NCBI GenBank assembly: GCA_964578605.1
Contig: CAZODO010000017.1
Location: 3,994-67,993, forward strand
DNA: 64,000 bases
From: an uncultured Verrucomicrobiota bacterium
Lineage (GTDB): Bacteria > Verrucomicrobiota > Verrucomicrobiia > Limisphaerales > SIBE01
Direction: 5' to 3'
The translations under genes and the position numbers were made by a program. The number at the start of each line of letters is the position of its first letter. Position 1 is the stretch's first letter. Under the pieces are notes generated by a model that was not told the origin of the DNA, made no database searches, and worked only from the letters and a program-made list of their open reading frames with translations. Positions 606-8,217 of this stretch are shown here, piece by piece.

Positions 606-2438
606 CTATGCCAGTTGCAGCCTCCCTCTGAGCCGCCAGGGATCGCGGCCGCGTTGACCTTGCCAGTGGCTTTGCGCCAGGGTCTCGGCCGTAAAGGCGC
701 CGCCCGCGGATCTCAGCGCGTGCAGGGCAAGCTTGGTGGAATCAAACGTGTCTCCATGCCGGCCGTCCGCGTCTGGCTCGCAAACGAATTGGCCTTTCTC
801 CTTCTTGACCAGTCGCCAGTCCTCGCGGACGTACCGCTCAGGCGGCAGCCAGAGATGATTGTCATCGAGCTCCGCCACCAGCAGGCCGCCGAGGAACTGC
901 TTGCTGGTGATCTTCTCCTCCTGCCCAGGCCGCTCAATCGTCTCGCTTCCGATCACCAGCTCCACTGGCAGATCGGCTGCAAGCTCCTTGCGCGCGGTCT
1001 GCGCGAAGTAGCGCTCGTTGGTGGCGTCAATGCTCAACCGCCTGGCTGGGCCTCCAGCAGGGCGGGCCCGCACCACCTGCGCGATCCGCCTGGCTCGCTC
1101 GAGCGCGACATCCGGATCGGCCGTTTTCCAATGGAAGATGGCCCGGCTGATCAGCTCGACGCCATACTCCTCGAGCACCGTGAAGCTGCTCGGGTTGCTC
1201 GTCTCCTTCGTCGTTGTGGCCAGGTCCCACCCCAGCCCGACACGGCCAGCGCCCAGGTGGTCCACTAACCACCGGAGCGCCTGGTCAAACTCTAGATCGT
1301 TCCCGATCTGGAATAGCTGACACTGGCCCACACCACGCCGCTGCGCGGTGTCGATCTGCTGCAGGCCGCAAGCTGAGGTCCCGCCTAGCACAAACTTGCA
1401 GCCATAATTGCGGTCCCAAGCATCCTTGTCCGGCGCGCGCCGGCGTGATTCCTCGGGCGTGATCGGTGCGCCGGTATCGTCGTCATAGAGCGGTATGCCA
1501 TCGGCCGCGGCGTCCCAGGCCGTGATCCGCAGGACCCAGACGCCCAGCTCGCTCCGATACCAGTTGCCCTTAGGATTGACCGGAAGCTCCGTCCCGATCG
1601 GCGGCGCTAAAAGCTCAAAGCTCGGGTGGGAATCGTCCGGCGGTGGGGTGGTAGTATATATACAGCGGAATTCCGGGTTGGCACTGATGATCGGCATGAC
1701 CGCCTCGAGCACCGCCCGGAAGTTCGGCACCCGGCCGACTTCATCCAGGATCAGGTCGCCCGTCTCGCCGACGGCCGCCGGGGTCAGGGCCACGACCTTT
1801 GTCCGGGAGTAGATCGACTGGGAATGATACAGCCTGAACTCGAGCCGGCTGTGCTCGTAAAGGTCGCTCCAATCGTCCAGGCTGATCCCCGCCACGCTCT
1901 TGCCCTTCTGATCGTCGACCACGTCCAGCTTGGTCGCTGCCGCCGCGGCCTGGCTGGCCATGAGGTTAAAGGCTTTCTGCAGCGCCTCAGCCTCTTTCCG
2001 GACGATCTCACGACCCAGGTCCAACTTCACGGACCCGAACACGACGGAGTGCCCAGCCCGCTTCATCATCTTCTTAAGCGCGATCCGGGCGGCCGTTGTG
2101 GTCTTGCCATACTGCCTGCGAGCCAGGAGCCCGCACACGCGGTGCAGCTCCACTCCGCGCTCGAATTCCCGTTGGCCCGCGCGGACGCGGACCTTGGGCA
2201 AAGAGTTGCCACCATCGCCCCGATTAGCCGGTTGAATCGCCTCAACCCCTGCCGGCTGTGCATCGGAGCTTGCGACCTGGTGGCCGGCCGTTGTCATGCG
2301 CAGGGGCGAAAAGGAGCTGCCGGATGCGCCCCTCGAGCTCTTGCCCGAGTCGCCAGCGCTTTGTGCAGCAGCCGCGGCCGCCGCAGGGCCGTCCGGCACG
2401 GCCGATCGCTTCCTGTTTTTTGTAGAAGCCTTCTTCAC
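606..2438 (-). CDS. Terminase large subunit (Mu gp28-like)
   Basis: Walker A-like RRQYGKTT, Walker B LILDEVG, RNase H-like nuclease motifs GWDLAT and HGDTFDS; lies between TerS and portal. Confidence 0.9.
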   Translation of the reverse strand: MKKASTKNRKRSAVPDGPAAAAAAAQSAGDSGKSSRGASGSSFSPLRMTTAGHQVASSDAQPAGVEAIQPANRGDGGNSLPKVRVRAGQREFERGVELHRVCGLLARRQYGKTTTAARIALKKMMKRAGHSVVFGSVKLDLGREIVRKEAEALQKAFNLMASQAAAAATKLDVVDDQKGKSVAGISLDDWSDLYEHSRLEFRLYHSQSIYSRTKVVALTPAAVGETGDLILDEVGRVPNFRAVLEAVMPIISANPEFRCIYTTTPPPDDSHPSFELLAPPIGTELPVNPKGNWYRSELGVWVLRITAWDAAADGIPLYDDDTGAPITPEESRRRAPDKDAWDRNYGCKFVLGGTSACGLQQIDTAQRRGVGQCQLFQIGNDLEFDQALRWLVDHLGAGRVGLGWDLATTTKETSNPSSFTVLEEYGVELISRAIFHWKTADPDVALERARRIAQVVRARPAGGPARRLSIDATNERYFAQTARKELAADLPVELVIGSETIERPGQEEKITSKQFLGGLLVAELDDNHLWLPPERYVREDWRLVKKEKGQFVCEPDADGRHGDTFDSTKLALHALRSAGGAFTAETLAQSHWQGQRGRDPWRLRGRLQLA

Positions 2439-2995
2439 TGCTGCCAGTCCTCCCCGAACATGAGCTGCCCAAGCCGCTCGATCTTCTCGGCGTTGGACTG
2501 GCTGCCGGTGGCGATGGCCTTGGCCTGCTCATCCGCCACCCACTTGATGAAAGTCTCGCAGGTCTCCCGCTGGTACTTGGCTTGCGCCAGCGCCAGCTCG
2601 GCCTGGTCGATCTCCTGGTCCCGCGATTTCAGGACCAGCATGAACAGGCTCTTGACGTCTTTCGGATTCGCGTGCGGGCTGATCGCAAGCTCGAACGCAC
2701 GCTGCTTGAGCGCGTCAATCGTGGCCTGGTCGAATCTCCCAGCTTGGGCCGTGGCGGCCTCGGCAAGGGCGTCCGCCGTCTCCACCGCCTGGCTCCGGCG
2801 CCGCAGGTAATGCGGCACACACACCTGGTCCCAGAAAGCTGTGAACGATCCAAGCGGCACCCGGACGCCGAACTCTTTCTCGACCAGCTCCCGCGCGTCG
2901 GCGTAGCTCATACCGCTCAAGAGCCAGTCCGCCAGCTTGGCCTGGTGCTCTTCGCGCAGGCTCATCAGCTTCGAATCTGAGCGCGGCTTTCTCAC
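2435..2995 (-). CDS. Terminase small subunit-like (DUF3486 / Mu gp27-like)
   Basis: N-terminal HTH-like segment then helical region; overlaps the TerL start; Mu synteny. Confidence 0.75.
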   Translation of the reverse strand: MRKPRSDSKLMSLREEHQAKLADWLLSGMSYADARELVEKEFGVRVPLGSFTAFWDQVCVPHYLRRRSQAVETADALAEAATAQAGRFDQATIDALKQRAFELAISPHANPKDVKSLFMLVLKSRDQEIDQAELALAQAKYQRETCETFIKWVADEQAKAIATGSQSNAEKIERLGQLMFGEDWQQ

Positions 2996-3153
2996 AAGGC
3001 GGGGCCTTGACCCTGATATTGGTTATGGCTTCGTCGCATGCGGCGCTTGGCTGTGGTCTTTGGCCTGGACGGCTTTGGCTCAGGCGGACGCAGTCCCAGG
3101 AGCCCATTACGGAACCCCCACGCCACAGGTTTCTTGGCTTTCTCCGGCGTCAT
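2992..3153 (-). CDS. Small basic hypothetical protein (53 aa)
   Basis: ATG overlaps the gp26-like stop (ATGA) and its TGA overlaps the TerS GTG (GTGA); MTPEKAKKPVAWGFRNG...QGPAL. Confidence 0.55.
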   Translation of the reverse strand: MTPEKAKKPVAWGFRNGLLGLRPPEPKPSRPKTTAKRRMRRSHNQYQGQGPAL

Positions 3154-3413
3154 GCTTCGGCGAACGCGGCTTTGCCTTTGTCGGTGAGCTTCCACTTCAC
3201 TGGTCCCCCCAGGGCTGGCCGGATCCCGGCGACGTGCCCTATGGCCTCCTGGTGCCGGAGCGCCTCTTGGAATTCGCTCTCCAGCAGCACAGGCCGGACG
3301 GTCAGGCGGCACTGGTTGAGCAGCGCGTCTTCCGGGAGCAGGAACCCCTGGCAATCGCTCAGGACCCTGAGGATCTCCACCGTGACGACCATCTGTCGGC
3401 GATTGGGTGTCAT
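3150..3413 (-). CDS. Mu gp26-like winged-helix protein
   Basis: 87 aa, EILRVL...LTDKG pattern, position upstream of TerS as in Mu. Confidence 0.6.
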   Translation of the reverse strand: MTPNRRQMVVTVEILRVLSDCQGFLLPEDALLNQCRLTVRPVLLESEFQEALRHQEAIGHVAGIRPALGGPVKWKLTDKGKAAFAEA

Positions 3414-3751
3414 CGTTTGATCCTTTCGAGCTGCCCCTCGAGCCGCGACACAGCCGAGAGGACATCGTTGACTCGGTTATGCAACGCCACAGCCCGCTGC
3501 TCATCCGCTTCCAGGATGTCCTCCTTATCCGCCTTGGCTTCCCGTCGCATCATCTCCATCGAATCCCCCAGACGCCGCACATCCTGCCGGACCGTCTCGA
3601 CTTCCGCCTTGGTGGCGTAGGTGTCGGCAAAGCTGATCTCCCGCTTCTGCGTCCGGTTGCCGCGCGTAAGGGTTACGAACGCCACTGCAAGGTTGCTGAG
3701 CGTGAGCAACGTCAGGACTACCGTCCACGCAATGCTCGGGTCGGGGGTCAT
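3410..3751 (-). CDS. Mu gp25-like (DUF2730) membrane/coiled-coil protein
   Basis: N-terminal TM helix then coiled coil ending RLEGQLERIKR; upstream of the gp26-like gene. Confidence 0.6.
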   Translation of the reverse strand: MTPDPSIAWTVVLTLLTLSNLAVAFVTLTRGNRTQKREISFADTYATKAEVETVRQDVRRLGDSMEMMRREAKADKEDILEADEQRAVALHNRVNDVLSAVSRLEGQLERIKR

Positions 3752-3759
3752 AGGGGGCG

Positions 3760-4005
3760 TTACTTACGCGGCGCGATCCTTTGAAGTCGGCTGAAGGCCA
3801 GGTTGGCCTGCTTTGGCGTGTAGGCCGCAACACCAAGGGTCCCGAAGAAAGCGCCCAATCCCGCGTAGAATACGTCCGTATCGGACATGCTCTCATTGCC
3901 CAGCGCCTGCACGAAATTCAGGGCCATCGCTTTGGCCTGCTCTTCGTTCAACGCTGTCAGGTCGCCTGCCACCGATGTTGAGTTCGTTCCGTTCGATGCG
4001 TTCAT
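3760..4005 (-). CDS. Hypothetical phage protein
   Basis: 81-aa ORF tightly packed in the late operon; hydrophobic C-terminal half. Confidence 0.6.
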   Translation of the reverse strand: MNASNGTNSTSVAGDLTALNEEQAKAMALNFVQALGNESMSDTDVFYAGLGAFFGTLGVAAYTPKQANLAFSRLQRIAPRK

Positions 4006-4018
4006 AGATTCCTTGTGG

Positions 4019-4693
4019 TTATGGGACGCTGATCTTTTCCAGCATCCGGTTGATTTCCCGCAGGGCTTCGACGGCGTTCGTCGCGCCGTGCTGGTTCACG
4101 CCCTCGCTCCCAAACGACTGCGTCTTGTCGGTCTGGAGCGCCTTGAGACGCGCGAGGCTCTGGGAAGACGAGAAGAGCGCGATGCCCTTGAGGTCCGTGG
4201 TGATCGACCGTTCGATGGTCGTCCCGTCGATTTTGATTTCTTTGGAGGTGTCATGCAGTGCGGCCGAAAATCGCGCGCATCCTGTCAGCCCCAGGCTCAG
4301 CCCAGCCGCCAGCAGGAGGACATAAATGGGTTCGCCAAGCTTCTTGACCTGGTCAACGGCCTCGCGCAGGGCCACGCCAGCGGCCCCAAGGACCATCCCT
4401 GTGAGCGTGTCCGCGTCGGTCATGCCGGCGTAATTGAGCACGATCTGCAAAGCTGCACCGATCAGCGGCGCCGCCACGGGCAAAGCCACGCGCGGTATTT
4501 TCGGGATCAGCTGTTTGAACGCCGCGATCAAGATCGGCGTGGTGATGGGGATCAAGAGTGCAGCCCAGCCCATCGCTGTCGTGACCGGGGCCTCCGGAGC
4601 CACAGGCGAATCGCCCGGCACCGCGCCCAGCAACCAGGCCATCGACATCGCCATCCCGGACGTCAGCAGGAAAAGAGGCCGGAAGATTTTCAT
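4019..4693 (-). CDS. Holin-like membrane protein fused to a lipobox-containing C-terminal domain
   Basis: Likely start MKIFRPL at 4693; several hydrophobic helices, then VLLLAAGLSLGLTGC and a soluble tail; first gene of the late operon (lysis position). Confidence 0.55.
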   Translation of the reverse strand: MKIFRPLFLLTSGMAMSMAWLLGAVPGDSPVAPEAPVTTAMGWAALLIPITTPILIAAFKQLIPKIPRVALPVAAPLIGAALQIVLNYAGMTDADTLTGMVLGAAGVALREAVDQVKKLGEPIYVLLLAAGLSLGLTGCARFSAALHDTSKEIKIDGTTIERSITTDLKGIALFSSSQSLARLKALQTDKTQSFGSEGVNQHGATNAVEALREINRMLEKISVP

Positions 4694-4893
4694 ACCCGGA
4701 AAAGAAATGGCAGCGCGCAGGCGAAAGGAGTCCGTGGGTGGAAACCACGGAGAGGAAACCCCCTGCGCGCCGCCGAAATTGCGTGAGCTTGTGGCTGCCT
4801 TTCGTTTCATCCGGGCGGCAGCCTAGAGGATGCCCGGATCAATGTATTGCCGACCGCAGGGAAAGGGCGGGGTGCTATGCTGAAGGATTTTAG

Positions 4894-5376
4894 CTAGAGC
4901 CGACGTAGTTCATTAATAAGAGCGTTAATGCGGCCTGCCACGATGAACAAGCCTCCAAGTAGCCCTAGCGATGTCCACGCGATCCCGCCGAACAGCCTGT
5001 CGTTGAGGAGCCCGGTGTTATAAACATCCTCGATCGTAGTCGGCCTCGACCAAGCGTAGCCAATACCAAAAGTCGCAAGAATGATCAGAAATCCTCCAAT
5101 CGCGCCTAAGGAGTCAAACAACCATGATCCTCTCCGATCATGAATAATCTCCACTGGGAGTGGCGATGGCTTCGGTTCAGGTGGGAGTGGCGCTGGCTTC
5201 GGGTCCGGTTGATGAAGTACTGTCTGTGGCGGCTGTGGGACGGAGTAGAGCACCGTTTCCATCCCGCAGTGTGGACAAACCGTTGTCTCTCCAGAGCGGG
5301 ACCGCTGGAAACTTATCTCCTCGTTACAGACGTTACACCGGCAGCGCGCATCAATGAGTATGCCTTCCGAGTTCAT
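4894..5376 (-). CDS. Zinc-ribbon membrane protein (moron-like)
   Basis: CNVC...CPHC, Pro-rich linker, two TM helices flanking VYNTGLLNDR; visibly AT-richer than the phage core. Confidence 0.75.
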   Translation of the reverse strand: MNSEGILIDARCRCNVCNEEISFQRSRSGETTVCPHCGMETVLYSVPQPPQTVLHQPDPKPAPLPPEPKPSPLPVEIIHDRRGSWLFDSLGAIGGFLIILATFGIGYAWSRPTTIEDVYNTGLLNDRLFGGIAWTSLGLLGGLFIVAGRINALINELRRL

Positions 5377-5472: not shown

Positions 5473-5670
5473 ATGAGTCCAGCACCTGCGAGTGAAACCC
5501 TTACCTTTGATCCGATTTTGTTTTCCCACGTCGCTTCATGGCCTGTTGAGAAGAAGCTAGAATTGGCTCGCCAGATGGAGATCTGGGCAAAGCAACTTCG
5601 CCAGGCTTGTGCTCTTTCGGTAGAAGGTCATCAAGAAGATCATTCTTCGCGGCAGCTGAGAGCGAATTAG
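5473..5670 (+). CDS. Putative 65-aa ORF antisense to the repressor 3' end
   Basis: GAGGAAAG SD before ATG 5473; MSPAPASETLTFDPILF...; overlaps the repressor on the opposite strand, so uncertain. Confidence 0.35.
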   Translation: MSPAPASETLTFDPILFSHVASWPVEKKLELARQMEIWAKQLRQACALSVEGHQEDHSSRQLRAN

Positions 5671-6028
5671 TATCTGGGTTTTCTGCCTTGGGGATGAAGC
5701 CGAGAATTCGGCGGATTCCCTGAATCACTGGAACCTTGACCTGCGGATTCAGTTGCCGCACTTCGTTCAGGAGCTTTTCCTCTTCGGACACTCTCTTCGT
5801 CTTAGGTGGCTCCTCTCTCTTTCCGGTAATTGGGTTCGTGTCATTTAGGAGCGACTTCAATGCAAGCAGCGTCTGCAATGGCACGTTCGCCTTGCCGGTA
5901 TCATAACGGCTGATCGTCGATTGCTTTATCGCAAGCCGGTCCGCTGTCTCCGTCTGAGTCCAGCCAGATCGTGATCGTAAACGAATGAACTCGGCGTTCA
6001 AGGGATTCATAGGCGCATTAAATTTCAC
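5501..6028 (-). CDS. Prophage repressor (XRE HTH)
   Basis: LRSRSGWTQTETADRLAIKQSTISRYDTG; divergent from the early operon; no S24 autocleavage domain visible. Confidence 0.85.
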   Translation of the reverse strand: MKFNAPMNPLNAEFIRLRSRSGWTQTETADRLAIKQSTISRYDTGKANVPLQTLLALKSLLNDTNPITGKREEPPKTKRVSEEEKLLNEVRQLNPQVKVPVIQGIRRILGFIPKAENPDTNSLSAAAKNDLLDDLLPKEHKPGEVALPRSPSGEPILASSQQAMKRRGKTKSDQR

Positions 6029-6333: not shown

Positions 6334-6562
6334 TCGTCGCACCGAAGCATTCGACCGTATCGCCGCTCGCGAACTTAAGACGCTTCCTGAGGACTACAGT
6401 GAGCGAAAGCAGGTATTGGATGATTTGATCCACCTGATGCCGAACGATCATCGCATGGCCAGCGAACTCCGTGATCTGGTCTCGCTGCTTTACCAGCATG
6501 ACCTACTCCAGCGCGAACTGCCGCTCAGGTTCGTGCAAGAGCGCAAAAGCCCCCAAGCCTGA
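6323..6562 (+). CDS. Hypothetical early protein
   Basis: ATG 6323 overlaps the Ner-like 3' end; 79 aa, helical. Confidence 0.65.
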   Translation: MQSDRRTEAFDRIAARELKTLPEDYSERKQVLDDLIHLMPNDHRMASELRDLVSLLYQHDLLQRELPLRFVQERKSPQA

Positions 6563-6566
6563 TCCC

Positions 6567-6800
6567 ATGACCCCCAATCACCCCGATCTTCATCCCCGGT
6601 TCAAGACAGCCTTTGGGAACGACTGTTCTGAGGAGCTGCGTTCCGGGCATCTCGCGGCGTTTTCCGGCCTTTGCCGATTCCAGGACCGGACATGGGGAAT
6701 CACTGTGTGGGCTCGGGATATCCAGGATGCCAAGGCATGGTGCAAATACCACGGGCTCACATTCGACGGCCGCATCATCGGCACCGTGCCATGGGATTAG
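6567..6800 (+). CDS. Hypothetical early protein
   Basis: ATG 6567, 77 aa, packed between neighbours. Confidence 0.6.
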   Translation: MTPNHPDLHPRFKTAFGNDCSEELRSGHLAAFSGLCRFQDRTWGITVWARDIQDAKAWCKYHGLTFDGRIIGTVPWD

Positions 6801-6801
6801 C

Positions 6802-7263
6802 ATGACCTCCTGCCCCCTCCAGCTCAACCTCAATATCCAGCTGCCGGTCAGCCGTCCGTTGGTTCCGATCGAGGCGGCCATGGTGATGCTGGACCGGGAC
6901 GAGGACCAGGTGCTTTGCCTGATCGAGGCTGGCGGGCTCACCTACGCCTGGGACATCCGATCCCAAAATGCCGAGCGGCGCGAGGTCCGGATCTGGCGTG
7001 ATTGCCTGCTGGCGAGTATCAACGGTAGCCCGCAGCCCGAGCACCCCGAGGATACCGTCCTTAACTCCCTCGTGCCGCACACCGCGGAGATCCGGTCGAC
7101 CCAGCTCCGCCGCATCTTCACCGCCAGCCAGGGGCACATCCAGAACCTGATCAACCAGGGCCTGCTCCACGGGCTCAACGAAGCCTGCACCGGCCCGAAC
7201 GGTTACGTGCGCGTGCAGCGCGCGTCCGTCGTCAATTTCCTCCGCAACCGGAGGATTATCTAA
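6802..7263 (+). CDS. Putative tandem winged-helix (excisionase/MerR-like) DNA-binding protein
   Basis: ATG 6802; IEAAMVMLDRDEDQVLCLIEAGGL and STQLRRIFTASQGHIQNLINQGLL...RASVVNFL. Confidence 0.55.
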   Translation: MTSCPLQLNLNIQLPVSRPLVPIEAAMVMLDRDEDQVLCLIEAGGLTYAWDIRSQNAERREVRIWRDCLLASINGSPQPEHPEDTVLNSLVPHTAEIRSTQLRRIFTASQGHIQNLINQGLLHGLNEACTGPNGYVRVQRASVVNFLRNRRII

Positions 7264-7275
7264 CCGAGGAAACCA

Positions 7276-8217
7276 ATGCAAAAGAGCACCTATATCGACC
7301 CCAAGAAACTTGCCGAACACGAACTGCTCAAGCGCCTGCCGCCCCTGGCTCCCGATGACCCCGACGTGATGAAGATCGCCGAGAGCATCTCCAGCCTCGG
7401 GAGAATCACTGACCCGCTCAAGATTACCGAAGACGGCCGAATCGTCGACGGCCGTCGGCGCCGCGCCGCGGCAATGCGGCTGAAGATGGCAGAGGTCCCT
7501 GTTGTTTATGTCCCCGACACGGAGGCCCCCTTCCTGGTCGTCAGCAGCCTCGAGCACCGGGCCCACTTCACCAAGAGCCAGCGCGCATACCTGGTTGCGC
7601 CATTCCTCCAGGAGGCGTTCGACTATGCTCGAGAGCGCAAGATTGCCTCTCTCAAACAAGGAGATTCTCCCGTGGCGAACGCAGTTCGTATGGGTATCAA
7701 AAGGGTGGATGAATGGGCTGAGGGGATGGGTCTCACTGTCCGTCTTCTTCAACAGGCGCAAGAACTTAGGAAGTTCTTTGAAGACCACACCCCGCGCACC
7801 ATCACCGACACCGACGACGTAACCGAAGAAGGCGTCTCATTCCAGGAATTCTTCGAACCTCGCATCCTGCGCGAGGAGAAACCCTACGGTCTCGGGGCGG
7901 CGCTGGCCGGCATCAAAGCCAAGCTCGCAATGGAAGCTTCAACCGCTCGCGGCCGACCCCACACCGGAGGCAAGCCGAAGGCAGTCGAGCAGCAGCTCAA
8001 GCTTTTCGGCCGCCTGATCACCGACGAACTCACCCGCTGGGAGTACTGGCAAGCCTGGGATGAGGAGACCCGTGCCGAGCATTGGCAAGCCGTGCGGGAG
8101 CGCATCGCAGATGTTCCCAAGACCCAGGCCGATCTCATGAGCCAGTATCACGCCAAGCTCGCGGGCGAATTCCGGCGCGCGGCCAAGGCACAGGAGAATC
8201 AATATGCTAACACATGA
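7276..8217 (+). CDS. ParB/Srx N-terminal domain protein
   Basis: PLKITEDGRIVDGRRRRAAA motif followed by an HTH region; directly before the transposase. Confidence 0.8.
   Translation: MQKSTYIDPKKLAEHELLKRLPPLAPDDPDVMKIAESISSLGRITDPLKITEDGRIVDGRRRRAAAMRLKMAEVPVVYVPDTEAPFLVVSSLEHRAHFTKSQRAYLVAPFLQEAFDYARERKIASLKQGDSPVANAVRMGIKRVDEWAEGMGLTVRLLQQAQELRKFFEDHTPRTITDTDDVTEEGVSFQEFFEPRILREEKPYGLGAALAGIKAKLAMEASTARGRPHTGGKPKAVEQQLKLFGRLITDELTRWEYWQAWDEETRAEHWQAVRERIADVPKTQADLMSQYHAKLAGEFRRAAKAQENQYANT

Follow-up and report, generated by a model that had tools for sequence, protein, structure and literature searches.

Lysis of diderm hosts by bacteriophages is taught as the work of three or four separate products, namely a holin, an endolysin, and one or two spanin subunits. 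Holins of the Hol118 type lie N-out with the basic tail in the cytoplasm, and in phage T4 the periplasmic domain of holin T serves lysis inhibition. The spanin layouts set out in the part of the SpaninDB survey covered here are embedded, overlapped, separated, and unimolecular, and none of them is fused to a holin (PMC6139136). In the lysis cassette of phage Mu, the endolysin, gp22, is of the signal-anchor-release (SAR) type, gp23/23.1 are the spanins, and gp25 is a releasin (PMC9239132). Here we describe a gene, P0001, that joins a holin module to a lipoprotein in one chain. It lies in a 64,000-nucleotide stretch of the draft genome of an uncultured Verrucomicrobiota bacterium (5.9 Mb in 178 contigs; contig C17:3994-67993), hereafter called the window, in which a Mu-like prophage fills position 1 to ~17,200 and runs on beyond the contig end. 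We propose, with a probability of roughly 60%, that P0001 encodes a lysis polyprotein that is cut by host Lgt and LspA into a holin and an outer-membrane lipoprotein, whose tail acts in envelope disruption.

Results

The layout of the P0001 product was derived from hydropathy and from an AlphaFold2 (AF2) model built on 149 relatives, with a mean predicted local distance difference test (pLDDT) score of 79.6. The protein has four parts: behind an N terminus that resembles a signal come a holin module of three helices, a lipoprotein signal within the chain, and a tail of 85 aa (Table 1). Helices were placed at residues 4 to 21, 45 to 62, 70 to 88, and 96 to 118, followed by a short helix at 122 to 136 that ends in L-T-G-C139. 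Translation, hydropathy, and the model agree on a single open reading frame (ORF) joining holin-like helices to a lipobox and a soluble tail, as a preliminary description of this DNA had proposed. The start at position 4693 is supported by the N termini of homologs (MK..F.PLF). The public gene call (P0002, 263 aa) starts 39 codons upstream, at 4810; Arg, Ser, and Pro abound in the extension (4694 to 4810), which relatives lack. The nearest named relative of the protein comes from a "Verrucomicrobiia bacterium." The N-terminal segment may act as a Sec signal that is cleaved off or may instead add a helix; it is absent from some family members, the short ones beginning at the first holin helix.

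The link of P0001 to holins runs through its homologs. The protein itself matches phrog_1129 (holin) weakly (E = 0.007), and its stand-alone homologs, which match P0001 in phmmer at E values of 1e-13 to 1e-16, match holin families: 36 of 52 match phrog_1129 (best E = 2.9e-9), 28 match phrog_1299 (holin), and 18 match PF06946, with one homolog (P0062, 27.4 bits) above the curated cutoff of 22.4. In size, number of helices, and basic tail, the module is like a class I holin. Its helices (45 to 62, 70 to 88, and 96 to 118) were modeled at pLDDT 87 to 95, the loop KQLIPKIPR is basic, as is the tail DQVKK, and the prediction is a three-helix protein with a charged cytoplasmic C terminus. Judged by these relationships, the N module is a putative member of the Hol118 holin family (PF06946, phrog_1129), and a holin function, that is, timed hole formation in the inner membrane, is suggested. 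The gene's place ahead of the terminase genes is conserved.

The lipoprotein signal that follows reads, in order, a KK n-region, LGEP, the h-region IYVLLLAAGLSLG, LTG, and C139. It does not stand at the N terminus, as 116 holin residues precede it. The preliminary description had staked its proposal on the conservation of the cysteine, and G138 and C139 proved invariant in an alignment of 22 fused homologs with the same tail, at 28 to 57% identity to the query. In the wider set of fused representatives described below, [GAS]-C lies 13 to 31 residues past the holin end, behind a hydrophobic stretch, in 61 of 63 sequences, and the residue at +2 after the cysteine is never Asp in these 61 (Ala in P0001). 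The genome itself has a gene for LspA (PF01252, 117 bits) and two for Lgt (PF01790, 237 and 223 bits). Because helix parity from an N-out start puts DQVKK in the cytoplasm, the hydrophobic stretch after it would run outward, in the manner of a lipoprotein signal peptide, and Cys139 would lie on the periplasmic face. This topology is a prediction that hinges on a weak third helix spanning the membrane; under it, the holin's own DQVKK tail would serve as the n-region of the lipoprotein signal.

The tail, which we call type a, was modeled as a long beta hairpin (residues 140 to 153 and 159 to 172, 14 residues per strand), two short strands, and a C-terminal helix (205 to 221) that is amphipathic and charged. 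Its KALQTDKTQSFG motif is highly conserved and predicted to be disordered. The tail holds one Pro (the last residue), no Cys besides that of the lipobox, and no hydrophobic segment past residue 140. The type-a module is also encoded alone, by lipoprotein genes of ~100 aa. Pfam, PHROG, and NCBIfam families all lacked a match to it, and a tblastn search of 50,697 deposited phage records with P0001 returned none. Foldseek searches with the full model (PDB, BFVD) and VIA-align (48,161 chains) gave background only, the best Z score (6.5) falling on the generic helical part. In the ESM Atlas, the tail was found only in unnamed viral clusters of 94 to 112 aa (0.89), which are most likely its stand-alone form. 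The modeled shape suggests a tail that binds a partner or assembles in order to work; when four copies were predicted as a complex, the score was 0.02, which speaks neither for nor against self-assembly. Ten other fused tails were domain-free in Pfam, and ten cassette proteins had no match in NCBIfam.

A search of 1.84 billion representatives yielded 648 relatives at E ≤ 0.001, and 156 representative sequences were classed by mapping the N part (residues 40 to 122) and the C part (140 to 224) onto them separately. The N module stands alone in 69 of the 156, ending a few residues after RE..DQ.KK. It is followed by a hydrophobic stretch, [G/A/S]-Cys, and a tail in 61, and is fused to a tail lacking such a Cys in 2; the C module stands alone in the other 24. 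The fused forms are 61 independent clusters at 50% identity from varied sources, all in frame and all with the lipobox retained. The lysis component that the preliminary description called unusual is not a one-off; it belongs to an architecture that recurs.

The tails of the 61 fusions sort into 18 families that are mutually without detectable similarity (type a with 29 members, then 10, 3, 3, 2, 2, and 12 singletons). Conversely, the type-a tail occurs behind other membrane modules. It is fused through a lipobox to PF23987 (Pam3 gp28) holins, with scores of 64 bits for the L015 ORF, 40.6 for P0055, and 27.8 for P0145 (cutoff, 27), and to two more unclassified two-helix modules (P0156/L029/L040 and P0138). 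PHROGs named none of these alternative N-terminal modules, and Pfam named one kind.

Where the holin stands alone in IMG/VR loci, the gene after it encodes a lipoprotein with an ordinary N-terminal signal. Separate downstream lipoproteins are homologous to the fused tails of type a (L021, 2e-17), type b (L010, 3e-17), and type c (L026, 6e-27), and in L039 a type-a lipoprotein gene begins before a stand-alone holin gene of the Pam3 type has ended. On the N-module tree, the fused or alone state requires at least 27 changes, compared with a mean of 43 for shuffled labels; because only 48 of 130 branches are well supported, we read the tree only as indicating many events. The simplest history is the repeated joining of adjacent holin and lipoprotein genes, with the signal peptide retained.

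The closest phage, L016 (IMGVR_UViG_3300025117_000146), is 38 kb long, is rated 90% complete, and has the same gene order as the prophage. Behind its holin, which ends after DQLKKIKPAP, come a 103-aa protein whose N terminus forms a helix and, in another frame, an overlapped lipoprotein ORF with the lipobox LCVGGC; these two genes are an Rz/Rz1-like overlapped pair. A holin followed by a gene resembling an inner-membrane spanin (i-spanin) and an overlapped lipoprotein is also found in L013 and in the complete genome G184. The tail of P0001 occupies the slot of these pairs, directly behind the holin, and L001, a Mu-like phage with a fused type-a tail, has no i-spanin-like gene. P0001 does not have the N-terminal lipobox and C-terminal transmembrane (TM) domain of a unimolecular spanin (u-spanin). 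Overlapped Rz/Rz1-like pairs after stand-alone Hol118-type holins were seen at L016 8290-8913, L013 8343-8757, L048 1772-2242, and L009 8238-8565, and an LYQPPVL...VWHS motif is common to lipoproteins of L013, L023, L024, and L048.

Two neighboring genes were considered as i-spanins and rejected. The 81-aa gene is not conserved: no homologs were found across 42 loci, and in L001, L016, and L048 its slot is held by unrelated small membrane ORFs, of which it is the positional counterpart. The 113-aa gene, the only one nearby for a coiled-coil membrane protein, has a product predicted to lie N-out/C-in, and its homologs co-occur with spanin-like pairs (L016, L013, and L048); an i-spanin lies N-in/C-out and bears a long coiled coil in the periplasm. 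This protein has 4 to 6 periplasmic residues, a helix at residues 7 to 29, and the junction TRGNRTQKR, and its gene lies two genes before TerS; it had no DUF2730 match at E ≤ 0.1 in Pfam and none in NCBIfam. A releasin-like gene of this kind is odd where no recognizable (SAR) endolysin is found. In L003 (7469-7699), L029 (7477-7806), L030 (7256-7732), and L032 (2720-3079), the gene before the holin encodes a coiled coil with a C-terminal membrane helix. These phages are unrelated and carry stand-alone or fused type-a modules, and the layout mirrors the releasin-like one.

The preliminary description had reported no recognizable endolysin at the lysis position within the window, and this held: family scans were empty there and at the left contig end. 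Across 38 ORFs from the 90%-complete relative, the unexplained ORFs of the window, and the left contig end, Pfam and PHROGs gave no muralytic match. Searches for PF00959, PF01464, PF08291, PF01510, and PF13539 in the same genome and in related records hit only unrelated contigs (C5 and C81) or L019; PF05838 was also searched, and its control gave no signal, so that result is uninformative. The fused holin of L019 has an M15 endolysin (62.3 bits) directly upstream, and L042 has another M15 peptidase near its stand-alone holin. Among 136 neighbor ORFs of 30 loci, GH108 and NlpC/P60 were found once each. In all, a recognized lysin lies nearby in ~4 of 30 loci and in neither G001 nor most loci. 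This negative covers the lysis position and does not extend to the prophage as a whole, whose capsid-to-tail segment lies outside it. An unrecognized enzyme is the default explanation of the gap. In L016, a 232-aa protein (6356-7054; L044 12588-13283) with a SAR-like, weakly hydrophobic N terminus is encoded just upstream of the zinc-ribbon gene. It had no family match and no homolog in the genome of the window or in other loci, and it is a candidate unrecognized endolysin of L016.

The prophage has a central repressor and divergent arms, with early genes running rightward and late genes leftward (Table 1). The late arm comprises the zinc-ribbon gene, P0001, the 81-, 113-, and 87-aa genes, a TerS-like gene, TerL, and a portal gene. 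The zinc-ribbon product, which could be a regulator of the holin, has a homolog at the same position in L016 (7051-7521, E = 5e-12); its CxxC...CxxC ribbon is followed by a proline-rich linker and then by the two membrane helices. Phage_Mu_Gp27 matches, which bear on the TerS-like gene, are present among neighbor ORFs of the relatives. The tail-fiber end of the prophage lies on contig C94 (C94:18378-22058), with host genes directly after it, and the tail-fiber gene there is 48.5% identical to its counterpart in the 38-kb relative. The capsid-to-tail segment was not located in the genome, and the prophage, which also takes in C17:1-3993, is split over at least two contigs. The last prophage gene rightward (15609-17054, +) closes the early arm and encodes a virion-protein-like product of 481 aa, the first 274 residues of which are 69% identical to a 901-aa protein of the 38-kb relative; the latter matches phrog_220, "minor head protein and DNA pilot." A 153-aa early-arm protein (13710-14171, +) gave weak matches to ricin-type lectin and agglutinin C-terminal domains (E = 4e-4, below the cutoff) and has a distant homolog in L040.

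Table 1. Features of the Mu-like prophage around P0001, in window coordinates
Feature	Coordinates	Strand	Basis
Terminase large subunit (TerL)	606..2438	(-)	phrog_2, E 4e-14; L016 homolog, E 4.7e-256
Terminase small subunit-like (TerS-like)	2435..2995	(-)	Homologs precede TerL in L001, L016, L018, L023
87-aa conserved small protein between releasin-like gene and TerS	3150..3413	(-)	Homologs in L001, L016, L040
113-aa N-out/C-in membrane protein, cytoplasmic coiled coil	3410..3751	(-)	Hydropathy, charge; homologs in L016, L018, L026
81-aa single-pass membrane protein, acidic N terminus, basic C terminus	3760..4005	(-)	Hydropathy
Holin-lipoprotein fusion gene P0001, 224 aa plus stop	4019..4693	(-)	Translation, fused homologs
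Predicted mature lipoprotein, type-a tail, residues 139-224, 86 aa	4022..4279	(-)	Stand-alone homologs, AF2
Predicted internal lipoprotein signal peptide, residues 117-139; Cys139 at 4277-4279	4277..4345	(-)	Conservation, hydropathy
Predicted holin module, residues 40-118, ends in basic tail REAVDQVKK	4340..4576	(-)	phrog_1129, AF2
N-terminal signal-like hydrophobic segment, residues 1-26	4616..4693	(-)	Hydropathy, AF2 helix 4-21
Zinc-ribbon protein, two C-terminal membrane helices; first late-arm gene	4894..5376	(-)	Weak Zn-ribbon matches, hydropathy
Helix-turn-helix repressor	5501-6028	(-)	
Early arm: ParB-like gene, transposase (8204-10294), MuB-like ATPase, Gam, weak GemA match		Rightward	

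Discussion

The fusion is real, conserved, and recurrent; its N module is homologous to holins, its lipobox is conserved, and the split and fused forms correspond. In the reading that we favor, P0001 would be a natural fusion of two neighboring lysis-cassette genes of a Mu-like prophage, in which the signal peptide of the lipoprotein was kept and now stands in midchain. The whole precursor would insert into the inner membrane, Lgt would lipidate Cys139, and LspA would cut before it. Two products would arise in a 1:1 ratio: a holin whose fourth helix is the retained signal peptide, and a lipoprotein of 86 aa that is set free. The latter, with Ala at +2, would be sorted to the outer membrane and act there in the envelope-disruption step that is carried out by Rz/Rz1-type pairs in sister phages. 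We infer lipidation, cleavage, sorting, and lytic function. The case for cleavage is indirect but strong: because sister phages make the same proteins as ordinary prolipoproteins, the working form probably starts at the lipidated cysteine; moreover, 61 of 63 fusions keep the lipobox whatever their tail, and the host has genes for LspA and Lgt. The lytic role of the tail is the weakest step; it is suggested by position and by a handful of loci in which such a tail and a spanin pair seem to exclude each other.

Several observations weigh against this reading. Hydropathy is clear for two holin helices and weak for the third (residues 96 to 118), and P0001 did not match PF06946 at E ≤ 0.1, falling below the Pfam holin threshold. 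Cleavage by LspA at an internal site is predicted rather than demonstrated, and in the literature we found no description of natural internal lipoboxes or of LspA acting at such a site. Engineered, internalized prolipoprotein signals were reportedly processed in Escherichia coli in studies from the 1980s. The tail modeled alone reached a pLDDT of 63.6, too weak for a fold search, and its fold in the full model matched nothing solved or in BFVD. No i-spanin gene was found in the window, nor any embedded membrane ORF in the other frames. The tail also falls short of an outer-membrane spanin (o-spanin): it has neither an i-spanin partner in the window nor a periplasmic Cys of the kind that forms intermolecular disulfides, and it has one Pro where an o-spanin is proline rich. 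The likeness to an o-spanin drawn in the preliminary description is not borne out. Finally, no muralytic family matched the flanking genes in the prophage part of the window (Pfam, PHROG), and a complete lysis pathway for this prophage is not established.

One alternative is that the protein is never cut. P0001 would then be a four- or five-helix holin in which the extra helix is an anchor and the tail a periplasmic sensor or regulator, as in the T4 holin T. The internal place of the signal, at which LspA processing is undocumented, fits such a protein, as do the two fused representatives without the cysteine (P0082 and P0119) and the high diversity of the tail families, which sensor domains can also show. 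However, [GAS]-C is kept at the end of the hydrophobic stretch in 61 of 63 sequences whatever the tail, which is needless for a plain anchor, and the same tails occur after stand-alone holins as lipoproteins with N-terminal signals. We therefore consider an uncut holin unlikely, and the uncut single-polypeptide lysis component of the preliminary description is replaced here by a precursor cut at the lipobox, which is more economical.

Alternatively, the precursor might be cut as we propose and the lipoprotein might serve another end as a late-expressed protein of the outer membrane, masking a receptor or excluding superinfection, as do Llp of T5 and Cor, and so shielding progeny from inactivation by debris. 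The joining of at least 18 unrelated tail families to one holin is what receptor-specific proteins would show, and the tail has no i-spanin partner, no spanin hallmarks, and no known fold. The position of the gene argues the other way: in the nearest relatives, the slot that it fills is that of the spanin pair, and the two seem mutually exclusive there. Moreover, type-a tails follow or are fused to holins of four kinds on unrelated backbones, which ties them to the holin and not to receptor genes. A role in receptor masking thus seems improbable to us.

A bolder version of the polyprotein reading would make host LspA part of the lysis clock. The uncut protein would be inactive and antiholin-like; cleavage would both arm the holin and free a lipoprotein of a new class, which would breach the envelope without an i-spanin and, in this phage group, perhaps without a dedicated endolysin. 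The lipoprotein could do so, for instance, by enlisting wall hydrolases of the host or through long hairpins that assemble in the outer membrane. We regard this version as speculative and distinctly unlikely.

Two proteins could also arise from the one gene by internal initiation at GTG107 or ATG100, giving the lipoprotein an N-terminal signal of its own. These are the nearest start candidates upstream of the lipobox, and in the split locus L039 the lipoprotein start does overlap the end of the holin gene. Yet both codons lie within the third holin helix, 32 to 39 residues before the cysteine, so that the resulting signal would be atypically long and of mixed charge. The last 31 codons hold no canonical start; in agreement with the preliminary description, no in-frame ATG, GTG, or TTG was found between GTG107 and Cys139. 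Ribosomes translating the holin would, in any case, still make the fusion. Internal initiation is accordingly a very unlikely source of the lipoprotein. That the fusion is an artefact of this 178-contig draft, through a lost stop, a frameshift, or an assembly error, is extremely improbable: the preliminary description was right to ask whether homologs are split, since the two parts are adjacent genes in many relatives, but the fused form recurs in 61 independent clusters diverged down to 28% identity with the lipobox kept, and the closest fused homologs (P0003 and P0004, 55 to 60% identical) align across the junction free of gaps.

The novelty of the polyprotein proposed here is a matter of arrangement: the components are known, their covalent joining is new and implies a processing step, and the lipoprotein family is uncharacterized. 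Production of a holin and an outer-membrane lipoprotein as a single chain would extend the lysis scheme by a further genetic layout, in which the conserved internal lipobox is presumably the site of the cut. If the proposal is true, P0001 is a rare natural example of a polytopic protein that signal peptidase II cuts internally, and the idea that host lipoprotein processing sets the stoichiometry or timing of lysis becomes directly testable. The type-a tail goes with small membrane modules of at least four kinds (two recognized holin families and two unclassified ones). Together with its lack of an i-spanin partner, of a known fold, and of a match in deposited phage records or PHROGs, this makes it a good candidate for a factor of a new type with which uncultured phages disrupt or modify the envelope. 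Annotators should leave such genes whole and not "repair" them; programs that predict lipoproteins from the N terminus alone will miss them.

Among described systems, Hol118 of the Listeria phage A118 is the nearest to the N module, with which it shares a core of ~80 aa, three hydrophobic helices, and a basic C-terminal tail. P0001 differs in adding a lipoprotein signal and an 85-aa tail, and many members of its family carry an N-terminal signal-like segment; the host of Hol118 is Gram positive, whereas that of P0001 is a diderm member of the Verrucomicrobia. The T4 holin T likewise carries a sizeable periplasmic C-terminal domain in one polypeptide. In contrast to P0001, it is a one-helix protein without a lipobox, and its domain serves to bind the antiholin RI; in P0001, a conserved lipobox stands between the modules, and the tail also exists as a free lipoprotein.

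The lipoprotein half calls for comparison with spanins. As in the two-component pair Rz/Rz1 of lambda, a small lipobox protein is encoded just after the holin; unlike Rz1, the predicted tail is a hairpin and a helix rather than a proline-rich coil, and its signal is internal. With the u-spanin gp11 of T1, P0001 shares a single gene holding a lipobox and a membrane anchor and a beta-rich periplasmic part. Here the order is reversed, with the membrane helices (the holin) at the N terminus, the lipobox internal, and no C-terminal TM domain, so that the lipoprotein, once cleaved, would be left without an inner-membrane anchor. The prophage as a whole resembles Mu, another transposable phage with its lysis genes just before the terminase genes, and its 113-aa gene resembles gp25 in size, N-out/C-in topology, Arg/Lys-rich junction, and position (PMC9239132). 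In the composition of the cassette, the two differ on three counts: Mu has no holin but does have a recognizable endolysin and a spanin pair, and the prophage described here has a holin-lipoprotein fusion, no recognizable endolysin, and no spanin pair.

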